DNA from: an uncultured candidate division WWE3 bacterium
Lineage (GTDB): Bacteria > Patescibacteriota > WWE3 > UBA101185 > UBA10185
Reading direction: 5' to 3'
Assembly: GCA_938004185.1 (NCBI GenBank)
Contig: CALKWN010000065.1
Span: 315,111-379,110 of the forward strand
Length of the DNA stretch: 64,000 bases
A program made the translations under genes and the position numbers. The notes under the pieces were generated by a model. It did no database searches and was not told the DNA's origin. It saw nothing but the letters and a program-made list of their open reading frames with translations. Below are positions 3,255 through 10,653 of this stretch, in pieces. Each line of letters opens with the position of its first letter. Position 1 is the first letter of the stretch.

Positions 3255-5102
3255 TTAGTGTTCCCAAACATCGCCTACAAAAGGATCGCTTACGACTTTT
3301 ACTTTTTTAATAAACAATTCGGCTGCTCTTACCATTTCTTCAGACTGCACTTTTGCCCAATATTCCGCCTGATCCTCACGAACTTCGGAAACTATCTCAT
3401 CGTGTACGGTCAGCGTAAGCGAACCGTCTATTCCCTCTTTAACTCTCCTATCGTTCAAAAATATAAGTGCGTATTTTATTGCGTCAGCATTAGTGCCCTG
3501 GATGGGATGATTTTTAGCTTCCCTTTCAATTCGCGATGTTTTCTTTCTAAAATCGGGGTCGTTTTTTTCAGGTTTTTCGTACCATCTTTTTCTTCCGAGG
3601 GGGGTTGTACTAAAACCGTCTCTTACAGCTTTTTTGGCTGTCTTATCAAGGTATTCCTTAACACTGGGGTAACTTGCAAAATATCTGTTCACATAATCCT
3701 CGCCTTGTTCTTTAGAAACAGGCTTTCCCGATTCATTTTCAATGCGGCCGGCCAGACCTATCGCACCCATTCCGTACATTAAACCGAACCCTATCGGTTT
3801 TGCAATTTGCCTTAAATCCGGATATTTCTTTTTGAAATCATCACTATAAGGCACGTTAAACATAAGTGATGCGGTATATGAGTGAATATCTAAACCGTCA
3901 TTTAATGCTTTTATCATTTTAGCGTCCCCGGAAAGCTCGGCTAAAATTCTCATTTCAAAGGCCGAATAATCTGCAGTTACTAATTTGTACCCAGGTTCGG
4001 GATTAAAACAGGTTCTAAACGGAGCTTCTTCAGAATTTCTCGGAATTTGCTGAAGGTTAGGGTTATTACAGGAAAATCTTCCTGTAGCAGTGCCCAACTG
4101 ATTAAATTCGGGATGAAGTCTTTTTGTAACCGGATTTATTTTTGACAATAAACTGTCACCAAAAGCCGATAATAGTTTTTCATAACCTCTGTAGTTTCTT
4201 AAAATCTTTACTACCGGATGAGGATTGGTGGCCAAAATAGCGTCACCTGTTGAAGGTAAATTCAGATTCAGCCTTACATTGAAAAGTTCCATCAACTGCT
4301 GCTGACTGTTCATGTTAATCGTGTCGGCGTGGTTCCCGAACAAATCTATCATGTTATGTTGATACAAAGGTCTTATTGCTTCCTGAAACTCCTTTGCCAA
4401 TGCATTTCTTTTTTCCGAAAGTTTTACCATAATATCGCGCCATTTTTGTTCATCGATGTAAATTCCTTTGAGCTCCATTTCTCCGACCGCTCGGGTAGCT
4501 GAAAATTCGAGCTTGGCAACGTTTAAAAGATTTTCTTTTTTTATCTTTACAAGCTGTTCTTCGAATATCGGAAATAAAATTAATGTATCCAGGGCCGAGT
4601 ACTTTAGCTGTTCTACATTTATTTTTGTTTTAGTCGTTACACCTTCAAACGTCTCCCTAACATCCTTTTTCAAATCCATTCCGGTATATTTTTTTGTAAG
4701 GTCTTTCAAGGAATAGTATCCGCGTCCCATACCTGCGTTTAAAATAACTTCAGCCAGCATCGTATCGTACATGTTTGTAGGAGCTGCGCCCACATGTACT
4801 TTCAAATGCCTGTAGTCAAATTTTCCGTTGTGAAAAATTTTTAGTATTTTAGGATTCTCTAAGTACTCTTTAAACCTGGCGATATTTTTTAAATCTAAGG
4901 CTCGGGCATCAAAAATGTAACTTTTATCTTCGACTCCTATTTGAACCAATAAAAGAGTTGAAGTGTAAGGATCCAATCCCGTACCTTCGATATCTACCCC
5001 GACAACTTTGGCTTTTTCTAAAAAATCTAAAGCCTCGTTAAGCTTATCTTTTTCTTTTATGTATTCGTAAGAAGGATTCTCCGGATCAAATTTAAGTTCC
5101 AT
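3255..5102 (-). CDS. polA: DNA polymerase I, Klenow-like (3'-5' exo + polymerase, no 5'-3' exo domain)
   Basis: N-terminal DEDD exo motif VGVDIEGTGLD. Family A polymerase motifs RQIAKPIGFGLMYG and HDEIV. Confidence 0.85.
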   Translation of the reverse strand: MELKFDPENPSYEYIKEKDKLNEALDFLEKAKVVGVDIEGTGLDPYTSTLLLVQIGVEDKSYIFDARALDLKNIARFKEYLENPKILKIFHNGKFDYRHLKVHVGAAPTNMYDTMLAEVILNAGMGRGYYSLKDLTKKYTGMDLKKDVRETFEGVTTKTKINVEQLKYSALDTLILFPIFEEQLVKIKKENLLNVAKLEFSATRAVGEMELKGIYIDEQKWRDIMVKLSEKRNALAKEFQEAIRPLYQHNMIDLFGNHADTINMNSQQQLMELFNVRLNLNLPSTGDAILATNPHPVVKILRNYRGYEKLLSAFGDSLLSKINPVTKRLHPEFNQLGTATGRFSCNNPNLQQIPRNSEEAPFRTCFNPEPGYKLVTADYSAFEMRILAELSGDAKMIKALNDGLDIHSYTASLMFNVPYSDDFKKKYPDLRQIAKPIGFGLMYGMGAIGLAGRIENESGKPVSKEQGEDYVNRYFASYPSVKEYLDKTAKKAVRDGFSTTPLGRKRWYEKPEKNDPDFRKKTSRIEREAKNHPIQGTNADAIKYALIFLNDRRVKEGIDGSLTLTVHDEIVSEVREDQAEYWAKVQSEEMVRAAELFIKKVKVVSDPFVGDVWEH

Positions 5103-5216
5103 TTCAAGTATGATATTACCCGATTGAGCCTTAAGATGAAATACCCGAACTTGACTCGAACAAACTATTTACCTAGAATTCGGTACAAACAAAAAACACT
5201 AACAGAGAGGAGAGTC

Positions 5217-5528
5217 ATGAGAGAGCTAAGTCAGGAAAACTTACGAAAAGTTGAGGCAAGTTTTAGAGGAAAATACAATAGAGAGGTCTGGTTGATACCC
5301 AAGTATGAATACGGAACCGGACGCAACATGTGGCGTGTGCTTGAAGATATGGGTTTTGAAGTCAGAAATTACCTGAAAGTCGGCATACTTTTAATTGTTA
5401 CTCCGCCCAGAAGCTGGAAAAGGCAGGTAATCGGGCACTGGACGTACATCAAAAACAGTCGCGGGAAAATTAAGCTGTTTGCATACTACAGAGACATACA
5501 AGATTGCTATCTGAAACTACCGAAATAG
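5217..5528 (+). CDS. Hypothetical protein (~103 aa), orphan plus-strand gene
   Basis: GAGAGGAGAG RBS 3 nt upstream of the ATG at 5217 (the ORF track starts earlier at 5124). Followed by a hairpin terminator. No family recognised. Confidence 0.45.
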   Translation: MRELSQENLRKVEASFRGKYNREVWLIPKYEYGTGRNMWRVLEDMGFEVRNYLKVGILLIVTPPRSWKRQVIGHWTYIKNSRGKIKLFAYYRDIQDCYLKLPK

Positions 5529-5555
5529 CATTGTTTCCGGATATCAGCAAAACAA

Positions 5556-5598
5556 AGCCGTAATTAGAACCAACAATTCTTTTTACGGCTATTTTTTT
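5556..5598. terminator. Bidirectional hairpin terminator between convergent genes (5217..5528 and gatB)
   Basis: AGCCGUAA...UUACGGCU stem flanked by T7 on the plus strand and a U-rich run on the minus strand. The loop is long (19 nt). Confidence 0.45.
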
Positions 5599-6898
5599 AA
5601 ACAGACTCTTTTATGATTCGGAGAGTTGTAGCGGGATCAGCTTTACCCTTCATTTCCCTCATAACACCGCCCAGCAAAAACTGCAGTGCACTTTCTTTTC
5701 CGTTTTTAAAATCCTGGACGGCAGCAGGGTTATTTTGTAAGACGGTTTCTACTGCTTTTCTAATCTCATCGCTATTTGAAACTTTTTCGCCTTCATTTTT
5801 TACCCTCAACAAAATTTCGGATGCTGAAAGCTCCGACAAATCTTTGCGGTTAATTAAAATGTTAGCTGCTTTTGTAGACTCCAGCCCACCTGAAGTTAAA
5901 TCATGAAGTTTTTGAACCGCTTCTCTTCCCATAACTTCAACGAGGATTCGGCTTTGCTCTTTGCTTAAACCGTCTTTTTCCAGTTGAATACGCAGTGCAG
6001 AGGGCAATTCACCAACCAATAAGCCCAATTCCTCGATATACTTATCATCAAAAACCATGGGCGGTATATCGGGTTCCGGAAAATATCTGTAATCAGAAGC
6101 TTCTTCTTTGGTTCTTTGAGGAACAGTAATATTTTTAACATCGTTGTACCCTCTATTTTCTTGTTTCGGTGTTGAACCTGATTCCAAAATTTCGGTTTGT
6201 CTGGTTATTTCCGCGCGTACCGCTTTTTCCATAAACTTAAATGAGTTAATATTTTTGACTTCGACTTTGTAAGAAGGCAGTTCACCCTTTTTCTCCATCT
6301 CGGGCGTCCTTAAAGAAATATTTGCCTCGAGCCTCATCTGACCTTTTTCCATATCCCCCTCGCTTATTCCTAAATACCTGCAAATTACCTGAAGCTTTTT
6401 GCAGTAATCAACCGCGTCCTCGATAGAAGAAAAACACGGTCTTGTAACTATTTCTATCAAAGGCAATCCTGATTTGTTAAAGTCGACTAAAGTTTTTCCG
6501 TTTTGGTGAAATGACTTTGCAACATCTTCTTCGAGATGGACTCGCTCAATATCGGCCGTGTTTCCGCTTTCCAGAATTAAAGAACCGTTTTCGCATAAAG
6601 GCTGTTTGTACTGACTAATTTGGTAACCTTTCGGGAGATCGGGGTAAAAATAATGCTTTCTGTCGAATCTTGAATCTTTATTTAAAGTGCATCCTAAGGC
6701 TAGGCCAAGTAACTGTGCCTTTTTCACGCCTTCCGGATTGGGAACAGGCAAAGCACCGGGCAATCCTAAACATGTGGGGCACGTATGTGTATTAGGCTCA
6801 GCTTTCCATATATCCGCACTGCAACCGCAGAACATTTTCAGTTCTGTTTTAGGCTGAATATGAAATTCCATTCCCAGTACTAATTTAAATTCGCTCAT
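5597..6898 (-). CDS. gatB: Asp/Glu-tRNA(Asn/Gln) amidotransferase subunit B
   Basis: Typical GatB N-terminus (LGMEFHIQ...) and a C-terminal GatB/YqeY domain. Part of the gat operon. Confidence 0.92.
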   Translation of the reverse strand: MSEFKLVLGMEFHIQPKTELKMFCGCSADIWKAEPNTHTCPTCLGLPGALPVPNPEGVKKAQLLGLALGCTLNKDSRFDRKHYFYPDLPKGYQISQYKQPLCENGSLILESGNTADIERVHLEEDVAKSFHQNGKTLVDFNKSGLPLIEIVTRPCFSSIEDAVDYCKKLQVICRYLGISEGDMEKGQMRLEANISLRTPEMEKKGELPSYKVEVKNINSFKFMEKAVRAEITRQTEILESGSTPKQENRGYNDVKNITVPQRTKEEASDYRYFPEPDIPPMVFDDKYIEELGLLVGELPSALRIQLEKDGLSKEQSRILVEVMGREAVQKLHDLTSGGLESTKAANILINRKDLSELSASEILLRVKNEGEKVSNSDEIRKAVETVLQNNPAAVQDFKNGKESALQFLLGGVMREMKGKADPATTLRIIKESV

Positions 6899-7290
6899 AC
6901 GCGCACTCCTAATTTATATAAACCTTCTTTTAGATTTGCTACTGCTTCATTAATTACAAAGTAGGGCGGCTCGAATCCGGCCTCATGAACTAAGCTATTT
7001 CTTAATTTGTGAGCATCCCAAATTCTTCCGTAAGTCACTCTGTCAAACTTTTCTTTTGAGTTTTTTAATCTTTCACCCATTGTTTCTCCGGGAACAACAT
7101 CTTTTAAAGCGGCGTCCAAAGTTTTGTCGGCAGTAATTAATGCCTGTTTTAACTGAGCCGGACTTTTCTGTTTTAATAAGATAGCTATATTGTCCCAGTC
7201 GGAAGTTATTTTTCTCACAGTGTCCTGAGATACTGTGCCGTAAGAATATGAGGCTGTATTTTTTCCGAATATTGTTTCAAAAAATCCCAT
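6895..7290 (-). CDS. Hypothetical protein with an Rx4H (HEPN-like) motif, embedded between gatA and gatB
   Basis: ORF tightly packed: 2 nt after the gatA stop and a 4-nt overlap with the gatB start. Contains AHKLRNSLVHE, i.e. RNxxxH. Confidence 0.5.
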   Translation of the reverse strand: MGFFETIFGKNTASYSYGTVSQDTVRKITSDWDNIAILLKQKSPAQLKQALITADKTLDAALKDVVPGETMGERLKNSKEKFDRVTYGRIWDAHKLRNSLVHEAGFEPPYFVINEAVANLKEGLYKLGVRV

Positions 7291-7292
7291 AT

Positions 7293-8732
7293 CTATTCCT
7301 TTATAAGTGTGGGCTTCTCGTTATGAAAACCCGTCTCTCTTTGATAAGAGCACAAAGCTCCGAAAATTTTTGACTCCTCATTCATTCTTGCCATTATCTG
7401 CACACCTACCGGAAGTCCGTTATAAAAACCGCAGGGGACGCTAACTCCCGGAACTCCTGCAATACAGCTGGGTTCGTTTAGTACATCCATCATTTCACCG
7501 AACATTGCAGAATTAGAACTTTCTCCGACATCTAAAGCCACGCAAGGCATTGATGGTGCTACAAGAAGATCCACTTTTTCAAAAGCCTTATCAAAACTGT
7601 CTTTTATTAAAGTTCTTACTTTTTGAGCTTTCGAATAGTAAGCGTCGTAGTATCCCGAGCTTAAAGTATACGTACCCAGCATTATTCTTTTTTTAGCTTC
7701 GAAGCCGAAAGAATTTCGGTCATTTCCGTATCTTATTCCGTCAAGACGCGCCAAATTAGAAGATACCTCGGATCTTTGTAAAATTGTATAGACCGCGATC
7801 GAGTATTTAGGGCTTAACATATCAACATCGATTATCTCGGCGCCCAAAGATTTGAATACTTCTATCGCTTCATCAACTTTTTTTCTTGTTCCCTCTTCAA
7901 GATCCATTTCAAAGTAGGACACCGGCCTTCCGATTTTAACTCCTTTCAAATCGTATTTACCTGCCTCCGACAAATAATCTTCAACAGCTGCGGGAGAGGA
8001 AGTTGCATCAAGAGGATCTTTCCCGGCCATAACCGAAAGAACTAACGCTCCGTCTTCGGCAGTTTTTGTAAGAGGTCCCGGGCTGTCCGTAGAAGAAGCC
8101 ATTGCAATAATTCCGTACCTGCTAACTCTTCCGTAAGACGGTTTGACTCCGGTTACTCCGCACCAAGAAGCAGGACCCCTAGTACTACCCCCGGTCTCAC
8201 TTCCTGTCGCAAAAAGGCACATGTGTGCTGAAACAGCTGCTGCCGAACCTCCGGATGAACCTCCCGGAACTTTTGTTAAATCCCAAGGATTGAAAGTTGT
8301 TCCATAATCGGAAGTTTCGGTTGAAGAACCATGAGCCAGCGCGTCGAGATTTGTTTTTCCGAGCAACACAGCACCGGCGTCGTTAAGTTTTTGTATCGCA
8401 GTAGCGTCAAAGGGAGGCTCGTATCCTTCAAGAATTTTTGAAGCCGCTGTTGTTTCAATATTTTTCGTTGAATAGTTATCTTTTGCTGCGTAGGGAATGC
8501 CTAACAAAGGTTTATCTTCAAAAGCTTTTTCTCCTTTTTCGGAAATTAAATTATCAGCTTCCTTTGCTCTTTCCATAGCAATATCTTTGGTCACTCTTAA
8601 AAAGGCTTTAATTTTCGGGTCAAATTTCTCGATCTGATCCAAACATGCAACGGTAAGGTCGGTTGATGAGATATCTCCTTTTTTTAGGTCCTTTAAGGCC
8701 TCTACAACTGTAAGTTCGTTCAAATTATTCAC
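7293..8732 (-). CDS. gatA: Glutamyl-tRNA(Gln) amidotransferase subunit A (amidase signature)
   Basis: GGSSGGSAAAV amidase signature. Matches GatA in length and context. Confidence 0.92.
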   Translation of the reverse strand: MNNLNELTVVEALKDLKKGDISSTDLTVACLDQIEKFDPKIKAFLRVTKDIAMERAKEADNLISEKGEKAFEDKPLLGIPYAAKDNYSTKNIETTAASKILEGYEPPFDATAIQKLNDAGAVLLGKTNLDALAHGSSTETSDYGTTFNPWDLTKVPGGSSGGSAAAVSAHMCLFATGSETGGSTRGPASWCGVTGVKPSYGRVSRYGIIAMASSTDSPGPLTKTAEDGALVLSVMAGKDPLDATSSPAAVEDYLSEAGKYDLKGVKIGRPVSYFEMDLEEGTRKKVDEAIEVFKSLGAEIIDVDMLSPKYSIAVYTILQRSEVSSNLARLDGIRYGNDRNSFGFEAKKRIMLGTYTLSSGYYDAYYSKAQKVRTLIKDSFDKAFEKVDLLVAPSMPCVALDVGESSNSAMFGEMMDVLNEPSCIAGVPGVSVPCGFYNGLPVGVQIMARMNEESKIFGALCSYQRETGFHNEKPTLIKE

Positions 8733-9015
8733 GATCGAAAACTCCTTTCGTGACCACCAAATCTTTCTCTTTATTTTTTACGTTCTTCAGCGCCTCTTCT
8801 TTGGAGAGAGTAACAGTCCGAGAACCGTCCTGAAAAACATTTTTTAATCCTGTTACCTGAAAGGTTTCCTCAACTTTAGAAGTATCTAGCTCGTCTAAAA
8901 TTTTCACGTAATCCAGGGTATCGCTAAGTAGTTTTGAAAACTTCCCCTCATTGCCGGAAATATCTAGTTTAGACATTTCAGCTATTTTTTTTACCTCATC
9001 TATAGATATGCTCAT
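8725..9015 (-). CDS. gatC: Amidotransferase subunit C
   Basis: 96 aa with the GatC-like opening (MSISIDEVKKIAEMSKLDIS...). Overlaps the gatA start. Confidence 0.85.
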   Translation of the reverse strand: MSISIDEVKKIAEMSKLDISGNEGKFSKLLSDTLDYVKILDELDTSKVEETFQVTGLKNVFQDGSRTVTLSKEEALKNVKNKEKDLVVTKGVFDRE

Positions 9016-9106
9016 ACAAAGGTATTAAAGCAAATTTTTGTTCATATTTAAAGCAAAAGAAATGCCCGTCAAAAAATTTTTAGTTTTTAAGACGGGCGTG
9101 GATAAA

Positions 9107-9664
9107 CTAGATGACTAGTTCTTCCTGCTCAAAATCTTGCGTAATATCTTCCATGTCCTCATAAAATAGTTCCGCAATTTGCCTACCCAAAGGACCTGAA
9201 AAATAGAATCCCATGGTTTCCAAACTGCTTTTAGGAAAAACAACGTCAACTCTGAGCAAGGGAATTTTTATCACACCGAATGGTTTATAGTACAACATAC
9301 AAGTACTGCCTTTACCTGAATCGAATTTTATTTGGGACTCATGCGTTACTACATGCCCCATATAAATAAGATTCGGCTCGACCTGGGATACAATAACATG
9401 CAGCGAGCATACAGCTCTATTCAACTCGCAACCTCGATGAACAACCGCACGGGTGTCAGGAGATTTGTCGTACATCAGCATGCTATCCAGCTCTTCGAAG
9501 CAAATAGGCGGTATTAAACCGAAATCGATGTAACTTTTTGATCTTTCCCTAGTTATCTCGGATAAAGTTGGGGTGACATAGTCCTTTTGCTTTCTGAATA
9601 TTGTAAACAAAAGGCATGCACCAAGAACCACCATCACGGTCCAAAAACACTGATCTTCCGTCAT
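9107..9664 (-). CDS. Hypothetical membrane-anchored protein (185 aa, one N-terminal TM)
   Basis: Hydrophobic N-terminus then a soluble domain. Followed by a possible hairpin/U-rich terminator at 9064-9097. No family recognised. Confidence 0.5.
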   Translation of the reverse strand: MTEDQCFWTVMVVLGACLLFTIFRKQKDYVTPTLSEITRERSKSYIDFGLIPPICFEELDSMLMYDKSPDTRAVVHRGCELNRAVCSLHVIVSQVEPNLIYMGHVVTHESQIKFDSGKGSTCMLYYKPFGVIKIPLLRVDVVFPKSSLETMGFYFSGPLGRQIAELFYEDMEDITQDFEQEELVI

Positions 9665-9753
9665 CTCTCCTCCTTAATATATGATTTTTATTAAAATCCG
9701 CGATAACGCATTATATTTTTGAGCGGGAAATTAGTCAACAAATCCTGATTTGT

Positions 9754-10653
9754 CTACATCTGTTGAAGACGTCTTATTCTTTCTTCTATAGGAGGGTGGG
9801 TTGAAAACCAACCCGAAACTTTTTTTTCAAAATTTTTAACGGGGCTTACGATAAATAAATGTGCGGTAGCGCCGTTGGCAGCTTCCAAAATATCGCTGTC
9901 TGATGCAAGTTTAGCTAAAGCATCCGCAAGTCCCTTCGGGTGTCTTGTTATGGATGCGGCTGTAGCATCAGCTAAGTATTCACGATTTCTGCTGATCGCG
10001 AGCTTAATCAATGTAGCAATAATAGGAGAAAGTATTAAAAATAATATTCCGATCAAAAATATTAACCCGCTTCCCGAGCCTGAGCTGGAATTCCTTCTTC
10101 TTGATCCGCCGTATAAAGCACCTCTTGTAAACCAATCCGAAATCAAAACTATTGTCCCGACCAGAATACTTACTATAGACATCAACCTTATATCGTAATT
10201 TCCTATATGAGACATTTCGTGGGCAATAACTCCCTCAAGCTCTCTTTTTTCAAGGCGCTGGAGTATGCCGGTTGTGAAACACACAACTGAATGGTTAGGA
10301 TCTCTTCCTGTAGCGAAAGCGTTCATTGAAGAATCTTGGATTATGTAAATTCGGGGTTTCGGTATTCCCGACGCTATGCTCATGTTTTCTACGAGTTTGT
10401 GTAAATCGGGGGCGTCCTCAAATTTTACTTCTCTGGCGTTAGAAATACTTAAAACGATTTTGTCAGAATTGTAATATGAAAAAACTCCCGACAACCCCGA
10501 AAAAATTAAAGCAAAACCCATAAGGGAAAATCCGCTGCCTTCAAAATAATACTCACCCAAAAACCATCCAATTGCTGAAATTACGGCAATAAAAAGCACA
10601 ATAATTACGGCTGTATCTCTTTTATTTTTACTTATCTGCTGGTACATGTTCAT
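9754..10653 (-). CDS. htpX: Zinc metalloprotease HtpX (M48 family)
   Basis: HEMSH zinc motif, multiple TM segments, C-terminal PPIEERIRRL. Start set at the MNMYQQ ATG, which abuts the upstream NUDIX stop. Confidence 0.8.
   Translation of the reverse strand: MNMYQQISKNKRDTAVIIVLFIAVISAIGWFLGEYYFEGSGFSLMGFALIFSGLSGVFSYYNSDKIVLSISNAREVKFEDAPDLHKLVENMSIASGIPKPRIYIIQDSSMNAFATGRDPNHSVVCFTTGILQRLEKRELEGVIAHEMSHIGNYDIRLMSIVSILVGTIVLISDWFTRGALYGGSRRRNSSSGSGSGLIFLIGILFLILSPIIATLIKLAISRNREYLADATAASITRHPKGLADALAKLASDSDILEAANGATAHLFIVSPVKNFEKKVSGWFSTHPPIEERIRRLQQM

Follow-up and report, generated by a model that had tools for sequence, protein, structure and literature searches.

Closest described systems

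RNases of the HEPN superfamily are known in bacteria and archaea mainly as weapons: toxins of toxin-antitoxin systems, abortive-infection proteins and CRISPR effectors. The present study deals with a 131-aa open reading frame (ORF), designated X, which lies between gatA and gatB, two genes of the amidotransferase GatCAB, in the genome of an uncultured candidate division WWE3 bacterium (GenBank assembly GCA_938004185.1, contig CALKWN010000065.1, positions 315,111 to 379,110 of the forward strand). The window, as the term is used below, is this whole stretch of 64,000 nucleotides. It seems that X represents a HEPN domain with an intact catalytic signature in a vertically inherited, probably essential and usually membrane-anchored gene of the gat operon.

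The hallmarks of HEPN proteins are a four-helix bundle of ~100-120 aa, an insert between helices 2 and 3, an Rx4-6H motif closing helix 3, its arginine followed by a polar residue (N, D or H), and, often, an acidic residue of helix 2 within an Ex3[KR] motif (Anantharaman 2013, PMC3710099). HEPN RNases need to dimerise to form the active site (PMC13000451). Among the described proteins most like X are the HepT/DUF86 (PF01934) toxins of type VII, for example SO_3166 of Shewanella (Protein Data Bank (PDB) entry 5yep) and the HEPN toxin of Aphanizomenon (7ae2). They carry the same LRNxxVH[ED] motif as X, and the motif of SO_3166, GLR97NIAVH102DY104, even bears the same residue numbers, 97-102. The likeness includes a colinear profile alignment, in which the upstream tryptophan and the Dx3[KR] motif of helix 2 also correspond. 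In these systems, MntA AMPylates the tyrosine of the RX4HXY motif of HepT (PMC11586414), and a HepT-type HEPN toxin cuts the last 4 nt off a subset of tRNAs, as related in a passage of PMC10435456 that cites Songailiene 2020. In X, by contrast, position 104 is occupied by A, S, V, T, I or L instead of the AMPylated tyrosine, and the "YFG" segment of DUF86 corresponds to a gap in the hhalign alignment. X also differs from HepT in being chromosomal, vertically inherited, probably essential, usually supplied with an N-terminal membrane helix and encoded between gatA and gatB. No MNT gene was found beside X, and the other nearby ORFs had no nucleotidyltransferase match.

Neither PF01934 nor DUF4145 (PF13643), a HEPN-superfamily domain, gave a match for X at E <= 1 or for 40 diverse members of its family at E <= 0.1. 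The AF0298-type HEPN proteins (UPF0332; 2hsb) typically lack the histidine of the motif and use another one (PMC3710099), whereas X keeps the canonical arginine and histidine; the identity between the two is 12%. A single membrane anchor joined to a cytoplasmic RNase domain, with a housekeeping and not a conflict role, is likewise found in the Ire1/RNase L KEN domains, C6orf70 (PMC3710099) and RNase Y. However, Ire1/RNase L and C6orf70 are eukaryotic multi-domain proteins, RNase Y is an HD/KH protein and none of them is linked with gatCAB. Among amidotransferases, lineage-specific accessory proteins are represented by GatF of the yeast mitochondrial GatFAB (4n0h/4n0i) and Hp0100 of the Helicobacter pylori Asn-transamidosome. 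These proteins set a precedent for clade-specific extra subunits or assembly factors of GatAB-type enzymes, but their folds are unrelated to that of X, being neither HEPN nor membrane-anchored, and the association of X with GatCAB is a putative one.

Fold and active-site motif of X

The AlphaFold2 model of X, built with a 38-sequence alignment (predicted local distance difference test (pLDDT) 86, predicted template modelling score (pTM) 0.76), consists of four long helices with a short insert helix and a disordered N-terminus. As revealed by a structure comparison, the model matches HEPN proteins, including HEPN toxins, YutE, TTHA0636, ST0689, TT1696 and the HEPN domain of human sacsin; unrelated helical bundles score at most 7.5. 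Foldseek placed the same HEPN proteins on top, with weak E-values of 0.03 or higher. The initial annotation had described X as HEPN-like, and the model together with both comparisons supports this assignment rather than a non-HEPN fold. The identity of X as a GatB/YqeY-like domain was considered and rejected, since there was no such Pfam match and no GatB or YqeY chain among the structure matches listed.

All four HEPN hallmarks (PMC3710099) are present in X. The residues R97-N98-x3-H102 are the last ones of the helix 84-102. The insert between helices 2 and 3 is made up of a short helix (71-77) and loops (66-83) and carries a second conserved motif, GxTMGERLK, with conserved G68, G72, R74 and L75. 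Helix 2 contributes the acidic residues D55 and D59, the latter within D59-x3-K63. The AHKLRNSLVHE sequence with its RNxxxH motif, to which the initial annotation drew attention, thus stands where helix 3 ends, and the profile-profile alignment places it in register with the catalytic arginine and histidine of HepT/DUF86. In this hhalign comparison with PF01934 proteins, the two profiles were colinear over 95 columns at a probability of 26% with small alignments and 40% with larger ones, and the residue pairs (X/PF01934) included W91/W, R97/R, N98/D, H102/H, E103/E and D59x3K63/Dx3R. The comparison set comprised genuine proteins retrieved with a self-written DUF86-like consensus, only the returned sequences being compared; the consensus itself gave no PDB match at E <= 1e-3, and its weak matches at E <= 10 showed HepT motifs. 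In the Pfam searches with X and the 40 family members, sub-threshold HEPN matches were limited to RiboL-PSP, DZIP3 and Swt1.

The motif is conserved without exception. RNxxxH occurs in 343 of the 343 full-length members of the family; 80 sequences derived from the species loci had been picked with a pattern containing the motif, and the other ~260, which came from profile and phmmer searches, all carry it too. Among 344 aligned members W91, R97, N98 and H102 are invariant, conservation reaches 97% or more at each of H94, K95, D55, D59, G68 and R74 (D55 99%, D59 97%), and position 63 is K or R in 276, which produces the D59-x3-K63 arrangement. In shuffled X sequences, R.{4,6}H appeared at a rate of 23% and R[NDH]xxxH at 1%, so that the motif by itself carries little weight. 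The conservation of AHKLRNSLVHE across the family and the predicted HEPN fold indicate that the motif is more than a chance occurrence. X is predicted to be a minimal HEPN domain with a complete Rx4H active-site signature, composed of W91, H94, K95, R97, N98 and H102 with D55/D59 of helix 2, and it can be stated with high confidence that X is a real gene whose product adopts the HEPN fold.

The X family and its linkage with gat genes

The closest homologues of X are 191 proteins of 124-136 aa (best E 1e-79), of which the named ones are hypothetical proteins of candidate division WWE3 and other Patescibacteria. A profile search covering 1.84 billion cluster representatives yielded 2,353 representatives of the family at E <= 1e-3 and 847 at E <= 1e-10, and a scan of GTDB representatives found X in at least 559 species genomes, the best 80 matches of which served as the locus sample. 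The record titles of these 80 loci belong nearly all to the Candidate Phyla Radiation (CPR), for example to WWE3, Saccharibacteria, Nanosyncoccus, Uhrbacteria, Woesebacteria, Nomurabacteria, Dojkabacteria, Parcubacteria and Microgenomates. Labels of other phyla occur on a few bins; one of these, L041, has the same CPR-like gat context, and its label looks like the result of mis-binning.

No significant family for X was found in Pfam, NCBIfam, PADLOC (best E 0.05) or PHROGs (best E 0.06). Sequence and profile searches of the PDB gave chance-level matches only (a BAR protein, ribosomal protein S20, ferritin), a tblastn search of 72,556 plasmids and 50,697 phage records gave no match, and the cluster names of ten distant members are all "hypothetical" or missing.

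The neighbouring gat genes were located by a tblastn search with GatC, GatA and GatB of the window against the 80 species loci. The order gatA-X-gatB was found in 55 of the 60 loci with flanks on both sides; among the 72 loci whose upstream flank measures 2 kb or more, 67 have gatA upstream of X, and gatB lies downstream in 59 of 66. This order is kept even where GatA is only 40-45% identical to that of the window, and gene calls of independent assemblies agree with the gat context. Overlaps of 1-4 nt or short gaps surround X in the window and in loci L009 and L090, and a distant member of the family (P0200) stands in the order ligA-gatC-gatA-X-gatB with 4-nt overlaps on both sides. In the main branch of the family, to which X of the window belongs, 75 of the 79 members with a clearly resolved context are linked with gat genes.

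Pairwise distances among the X proteins correlate with the GatA and the GatB distances (r = 0.91 in both cases, Mantel p = 0.001, 60 loci), and the mean p-distances are 0.57 for X, 0.46 for GatA and 0.48 for GatB. This indicates that X has co-diverged with GatA and GatB, evolving only moderately faster. The initial annotation had described X as inserted between gatA and gatB; an insertion peculiar to this genome is contradicted by the presence of X in the same position of related operons and by its co-divergence with their products. We infer that X is a genuine, vertically inherited housekeeping gene.

Organisation of the gat operon in the window

According to the ORF list of the window, gatC, gatA, X and gatB all lie on the minus strand. 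The features of the operon, in the direction of transcription, are as follows.

9710..9738, minus strand: TTGACT-17-TATAAT, a promoter-like site that agrees with the consensus at 11 of 12 positions and lies upstream of the 185-aa ORF (orf185) and gatC; a consensus match only and a possible start of the transcription unit.
8725..9015, minus strand: gatC, 96 aa (PF02686, E 2e-10), overlapping the gatA start by 8 nt.
7293..8732, minus strand: gatA, 479 aa, amidase-signature glutaminase subunit with a GTG start (PF01425 Amidase, E 6e-125).
7297..7301, minus strand: Shine-Dalgarno-like AAGGA, 6 nt before the ATG of X, within the 3' end of gatA (read from the sequence).
6895..7290, minus strand: ORF X, 131 aa, predicted HEPN-fold protein of an unnamed Patescibacteria-wide family, as judged by homologues, model and conservation.
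7264..7290, minus strand: short conserved hydrophobic N-terminal peptide MGFFETIFG, aa 1-9, of low pLDDT, in place of the transmembrane helix of most non-WWE3 members.
6913..7227, minus strand: HEPN core, aa 22-126 (helix 1, 22-41; helix 2, 44-65; insert helix, 71-77; helix 3, 84-102; helix 4, 110-126).
6985..7002, minus strand: codons of R97-N98-S-L-V-H102, the putative catalytic Rx4H motif with which helix 3 ends; its R and H align with the invariant pair of PF01934.
6906..6910, minus strand: Shine-Dalgarno-like AGGAG, 7 nt before the ATG of gatB, within the 3' end of X (read from the sequence).
6895..6898, minus strand: ATGA shared by the stop of X (TGA) and the start of gatB (ATG), consistent with translational coupling.
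5597..6898, minus strand: gatB, 433 aa (Pfam GatB_N and GatB_Yqey).

The gatA stop codon TAG occupies 7293-7295 and the ATG of X 7288-7290, leaving a gap of 2 nt. The tight coupling of X to gatA and gatB noted in the initial annotation, with this gap on one side and the ATGA overlap on the other, is plain from the sequence itself. Within gatA-X-gatB, the minus strand showed neither promoter-like nor terminator-like sites. Since the only strong promoter-like site of this strand lies upstream and no terminator-like site is internal, the natural reading is that of a single, translationally coupled transcription unit. A scan of positions 5000-10000 against Rfam found no RNA family, which argues against a hidden RNA element there.

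The gene between gatA and gatB in Southlakia epibionticum

A 420-bp hypothetical gene of Southlakia epibionticum, SEML1_0535, lies between gatA (0536) and gatB (0534), overlapping the former by 4 nt and the latter by 1 nt (Wang et al., Cell 2023, PMC10633639). It is flagged there as a core and Patescibacteria-enriched family (PMC10633639 Table S1), carries the ProtNLM label "DUF4145 domain-containing protein" with a score of 0.98, and has a DPAM domain at 26-135 labelled "Nucleotidyltransferase substrate binding subunit/domain" (PMC10633639 Table S2), which is taken here to be a HEPN-type fold class. Its length of 139 aa is the commonest one among the Saccharibacteria members of the X family, and it is an apparent orthologue of X. 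In the transposon insertion sequencing (Tn-seq) experiment, the calls for SEML1_0535 were GD/GD/ES and its normalised reads fell from 126.6 to 5.9 and then to 2.8; neighbouring non-essential genes retained hundreds of reads (PMC10633639). X is probably essential, as judged from this apparent orthologue.

The gene table of S. epibionticum contains no entry for glutaminyl-tRNA synthetase (GlnRS) or asparaginyl-tRNA synthetase (AsnRS), so GatCAB would be the sole route to Gln-tRNA and Asn-tRNA in this organism. The table lists RNases Y, J, III and P, and the idea that X replaces a missing RNase Y was rejected for this reason. Table S1 of PMC10633639 also implies that the CPR versions of two subunits are so divergent that they cluster separately from their counterparts in other bacteria, which would fit a remodelled complex.

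The main text of PMC10633639 makes no mention of SEML1_0535, HEPN or amidotransferase, and no description of a gene between gatA and gatB was found in the literature searched. A survey of CPR-enriched protein families reported 106 of them, mostly unannotated, 76 with at least one transmembrane helix, and left gat genes unmentioned (Méheust et al. 2019, PMC6744442). Fold and chemistry are of a familiar type. The existence of a separate HEPN family absent from Pfam, its broad distribution within a single phylum, where it is inherited vertically, its probable essentiality, its membrane anchor and, above all, its fixed position in gatCAB appear to be undescribed. The gene itself is already present in a published supplement with a machine annotation and is not wholly unseen.

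Membrane anchor

Most of the family is predicted to be membrane-anchored, a feature that the initial annotation had overlooked. Nearly all non-WWE3 members start with a strongly hydrophobic segment that spans ~20 residues and has a Kyte-Doolittle mean of ~3.0-3.5 over 19 residues; in others an amphipathic "...LPFR" segment is present instead. The 12 residues after the membrane helix contain on average 3.2 K+R, versus 0.16 before it (124 members), and, by the positive-inside rule, the HEPN domain is predicted to be cytoplasmic. In the WWE3 clade, including X of the window, there is just a conserved short MGFFDFIFG-like peptide followed by a low-confidence linker.

In several WWE3-type loci where X has no membrane helix, a separate gene between gatA and X encodes a protein of 56-64 aa with two hydrophobic segments (L009 3786-3980; L013 4789-4980; L017 1522-1716; L004/L005 4825-4995; L008 308-478; L012 4102-4284). 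It starts at the gatA stop or overlaps it, and its products form two small homologous groups (blastp E 1e-7 to 1e-16; 5e-10). This protein may provide X with a membrane anchor, either a split-off one or a substitute. Its presence elsewhere in the window was considered and rejected: the gap between gatA and X is 2 nt, and the best tblastn match in the window has an E-value of 0.013.

Proposed role of X and alternative explanations

A functional tie of X to GatCAB is, on balance, favoured. A tRNA-directed activity of X, either binding or RNase, is possible but rather doubtful. The best explanation as a whole, put forward as a serious though tentative proposal, is that X is a housekeeping HepT-like partner of GatCAB that binds or cleaves tRNA; it is close to the tRNA-interacting accessory subunit suggested in the initial annotation. 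X would be made together with GatA and GatB through translational coupling and would act with them; outside WWE3 it would be tethered at the inner face of the membrane by its N-terminal helix. A dimer of X with a HepT-like site might bind tRNA(Gln)/tRNA(Asn) at the acceptor end or cut them there, either holding or presenting this end or removing tRNAs that cannot be amidated, and X would in that case be an accessory or quality-control factor of indirect aminoacylation. tRNA is proposed as the target because of the pathway that surrounds X and because of the precedent of the HepT-type toxin acting at the tRNA end on which GatB works. In a more specific version X would be "GatX", the essential fourth member of a transamidosome specific to Patescibacteria and tethered to the membrane, in which a domesticated HepT-like dimer would grip or trim the acceptor end of tRNA(Gln)/tRNA(Asn) and couple mischarged-tRNA handling or quality control to GatCAB. 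In this detailed form the proposal is unlikely.

Several observations weigh against a partnership of X with GatCAB. A sister branch accounts for 31 of the 344 sequences, and none of its 5 members of known context is linked with gat genes; some Uhrbacteria-type loci have ligA-gatC-gatA-X with gatB elsewhere, which indicates that co-encoding of X with the gat genes is not obligatory. Some WWE3 loci carry other genes between X and gatA or gatB, namely a short-chain dehydrogenase/reductase (SDR) gene or opposite-strand ORFs. The frequency of gat linkage may be overstated, as the locus sample consists of the top 80 of at least 559 matches. The orthology of SEML1_0535 is judged from position, length and fold label, and the depletion of its insertions may partly be a polar effect on gatB. 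A membrane anchor is without an obvious role in a soluble transamidosome, and the hhalign probability of X against PF01934 is only 26-40%. The putative interaction of X with GatCAB and its putative RNase activity are both deduced from gene order and motif conservation.

In another explanation X is a general, membrane-tethered and metal-independent housekeeping HEPN endoRNase that acts in the processing of mRNA, rRNA or tRNA and sits in the gat operon only to be co-expressed with the translation apparatus, free of any physical or functional tie to GatCAB. It likens X to RNase Y, which is a membrane-anchored RNase. The invariant catalytic motif and a sister branch that works outside the gat context speak for it, as does the combination of a membrane anchor and a cytoplasmic domain in most members, known from the transmembrane HEPN proteins Ire1 and C6orf70 (PMC3710099). 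Against it stands the precise placement of X between the two gat genes, gatA and gatB, whose start and stop codons overlap or nearly abut those of X; this is kept even where GatA is ~40% identical. Deeply conserved gene order usually marks interacting products, as Dandekar et al. 1998 are said to have found, and no obvious RNase gap awaits filling in S. epibionticum with its RNases Y, J, III and P. A general RNase of this kind is accordingly regarded as improbable. If X does not cut RNA at all, it might be a scaffold, a membrane anchor or a nucleotide- or phosphate-binding regulator of GatCAB, its Rx4H patch serving only to bind a ligand, for instance ATP, an alarmone or a phosphate of tRNA. 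GatB requires ATP, nucleotidyltransferase-associated HEPN domains and the human sacsin HEPN domain behave in this way, the DPAM label of SEML1_0535 names a nucleotidyltransferase substrate binding subunit, and a constitutively active RNase without an inhibitor would be hazardous in a tiny cell. Non-catalytic HEPN domains, however, typically lose all or part of Rx4-6H (PMC3710099), and X retains R, N and H in all 343 full-length members together with the acidic residues of helix 2, which makes a non-catalytic role distinctly improbable.

The initial annotation had also allowed for a selfish or toxin-like insertion, and X could in principle be a HepT-like toxin of a type VII toxin-antitoxin or defence system inserted selfishly into the operon, HepT toxins being among its closest structural relatives and sharing its LRNxxVH[ED] motif. 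This is highly improbable: the neighbours of X are gatA and gatB and not an MNT or other antitoxin gene, the AMPylated tyrosine is absent and the "YFG" segment gapped, PADLOC and PHROGs gave nothing significant, plasmids and phages gave no match at all, and inheritance is vertical across the sampled lineages. Transposon insertions in the apparent orthologue are moreover depleted and not tolerated. That X is a spurious, non-coding ORF has only its small size in its favour; the homologues, which number in the hundreds, share its length and keep its motifs, and together with a confident fold prediction and an upstream Shine-Dalgarno-like element they reduce this to a negligible prospect.

Should X act together with GatCAB, indirect tRNA aminoacylation would gain a new component and CPR translation a phylum-level signature; should the "GatX" reading be true, X would also be an example of the housekeeping use of a fold otherwise known in prokaryotes mainly from toxins and immune effectors. 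If X does not act with GatCAB, it would still be a conserved, uncharacterised candidate for an RNase and one of the few dozen essential genes that are enriched in CPR.

Variant loci and neighbouring genes

The sister branch of the family (L024, L026, L074, L091-L094) is characterised by a membrane helix followed by a first helix with "W[KR]...", and its gene neighbours are recF-like, phosphoglucomutase-like and LUD-domain genes. In three WWE3 loci an SDR (adh_short) gene lies on the same strand between X and gatB (L008 890-1579, L012 4719-5417, L013 5375-6079), so the operon tolerates an unrelated gene at this junction in some WWE3 genomes. In L006 (563-2527, GCA_964473275.1) and L007, an opposite-strand ORF of 154 aa is located between gatA and X and another one, of 103 aa, between X and gatB. 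In the gene calls of L006, gatA is represented by a 72-aa amidase fragment only; gatA may be degraded there, or a fault of the assembly or a frameshift may be responsible.

The 185-aa ORF of the window (9107-9664, minus strand) separates htpX from gatC, with the best promoter-like site (9738-9710) just upstream of it; it has an N-terminal hydrophobic segment and no Pfam match. It is specific to the window lineage, since gatC directly follows htpX in the syntenic loci L001-L003.

In GatB of the window, the region 321-372 replaces ~93 residues of the helical domain of Thermotoga maritima GatB, the domain being ~41 aa shorter. A short GatB (431-439 aa) was found only in the WWE3 clade, the other CPR lineages having 464-537 aa. 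In solved transamidosomes the helical and tail domains of GatB touch the tRNA elbow, and tRNA recognition may for this reason differ in WWE3. Compensation by X for the shortened helical domain was considered and rejected, because outside WWE3 GatB has 464-537 aa and X is equally conserved there.

Downstream of gatB, the window encodes a family A DNA polymerase of 615 aa (3255-5102, minus strand) with 3'-5' exonuclease and polymerase domains and without a 5'-3' exonuclease domain. The order gatB-polA is kept across the WWE3 loci.

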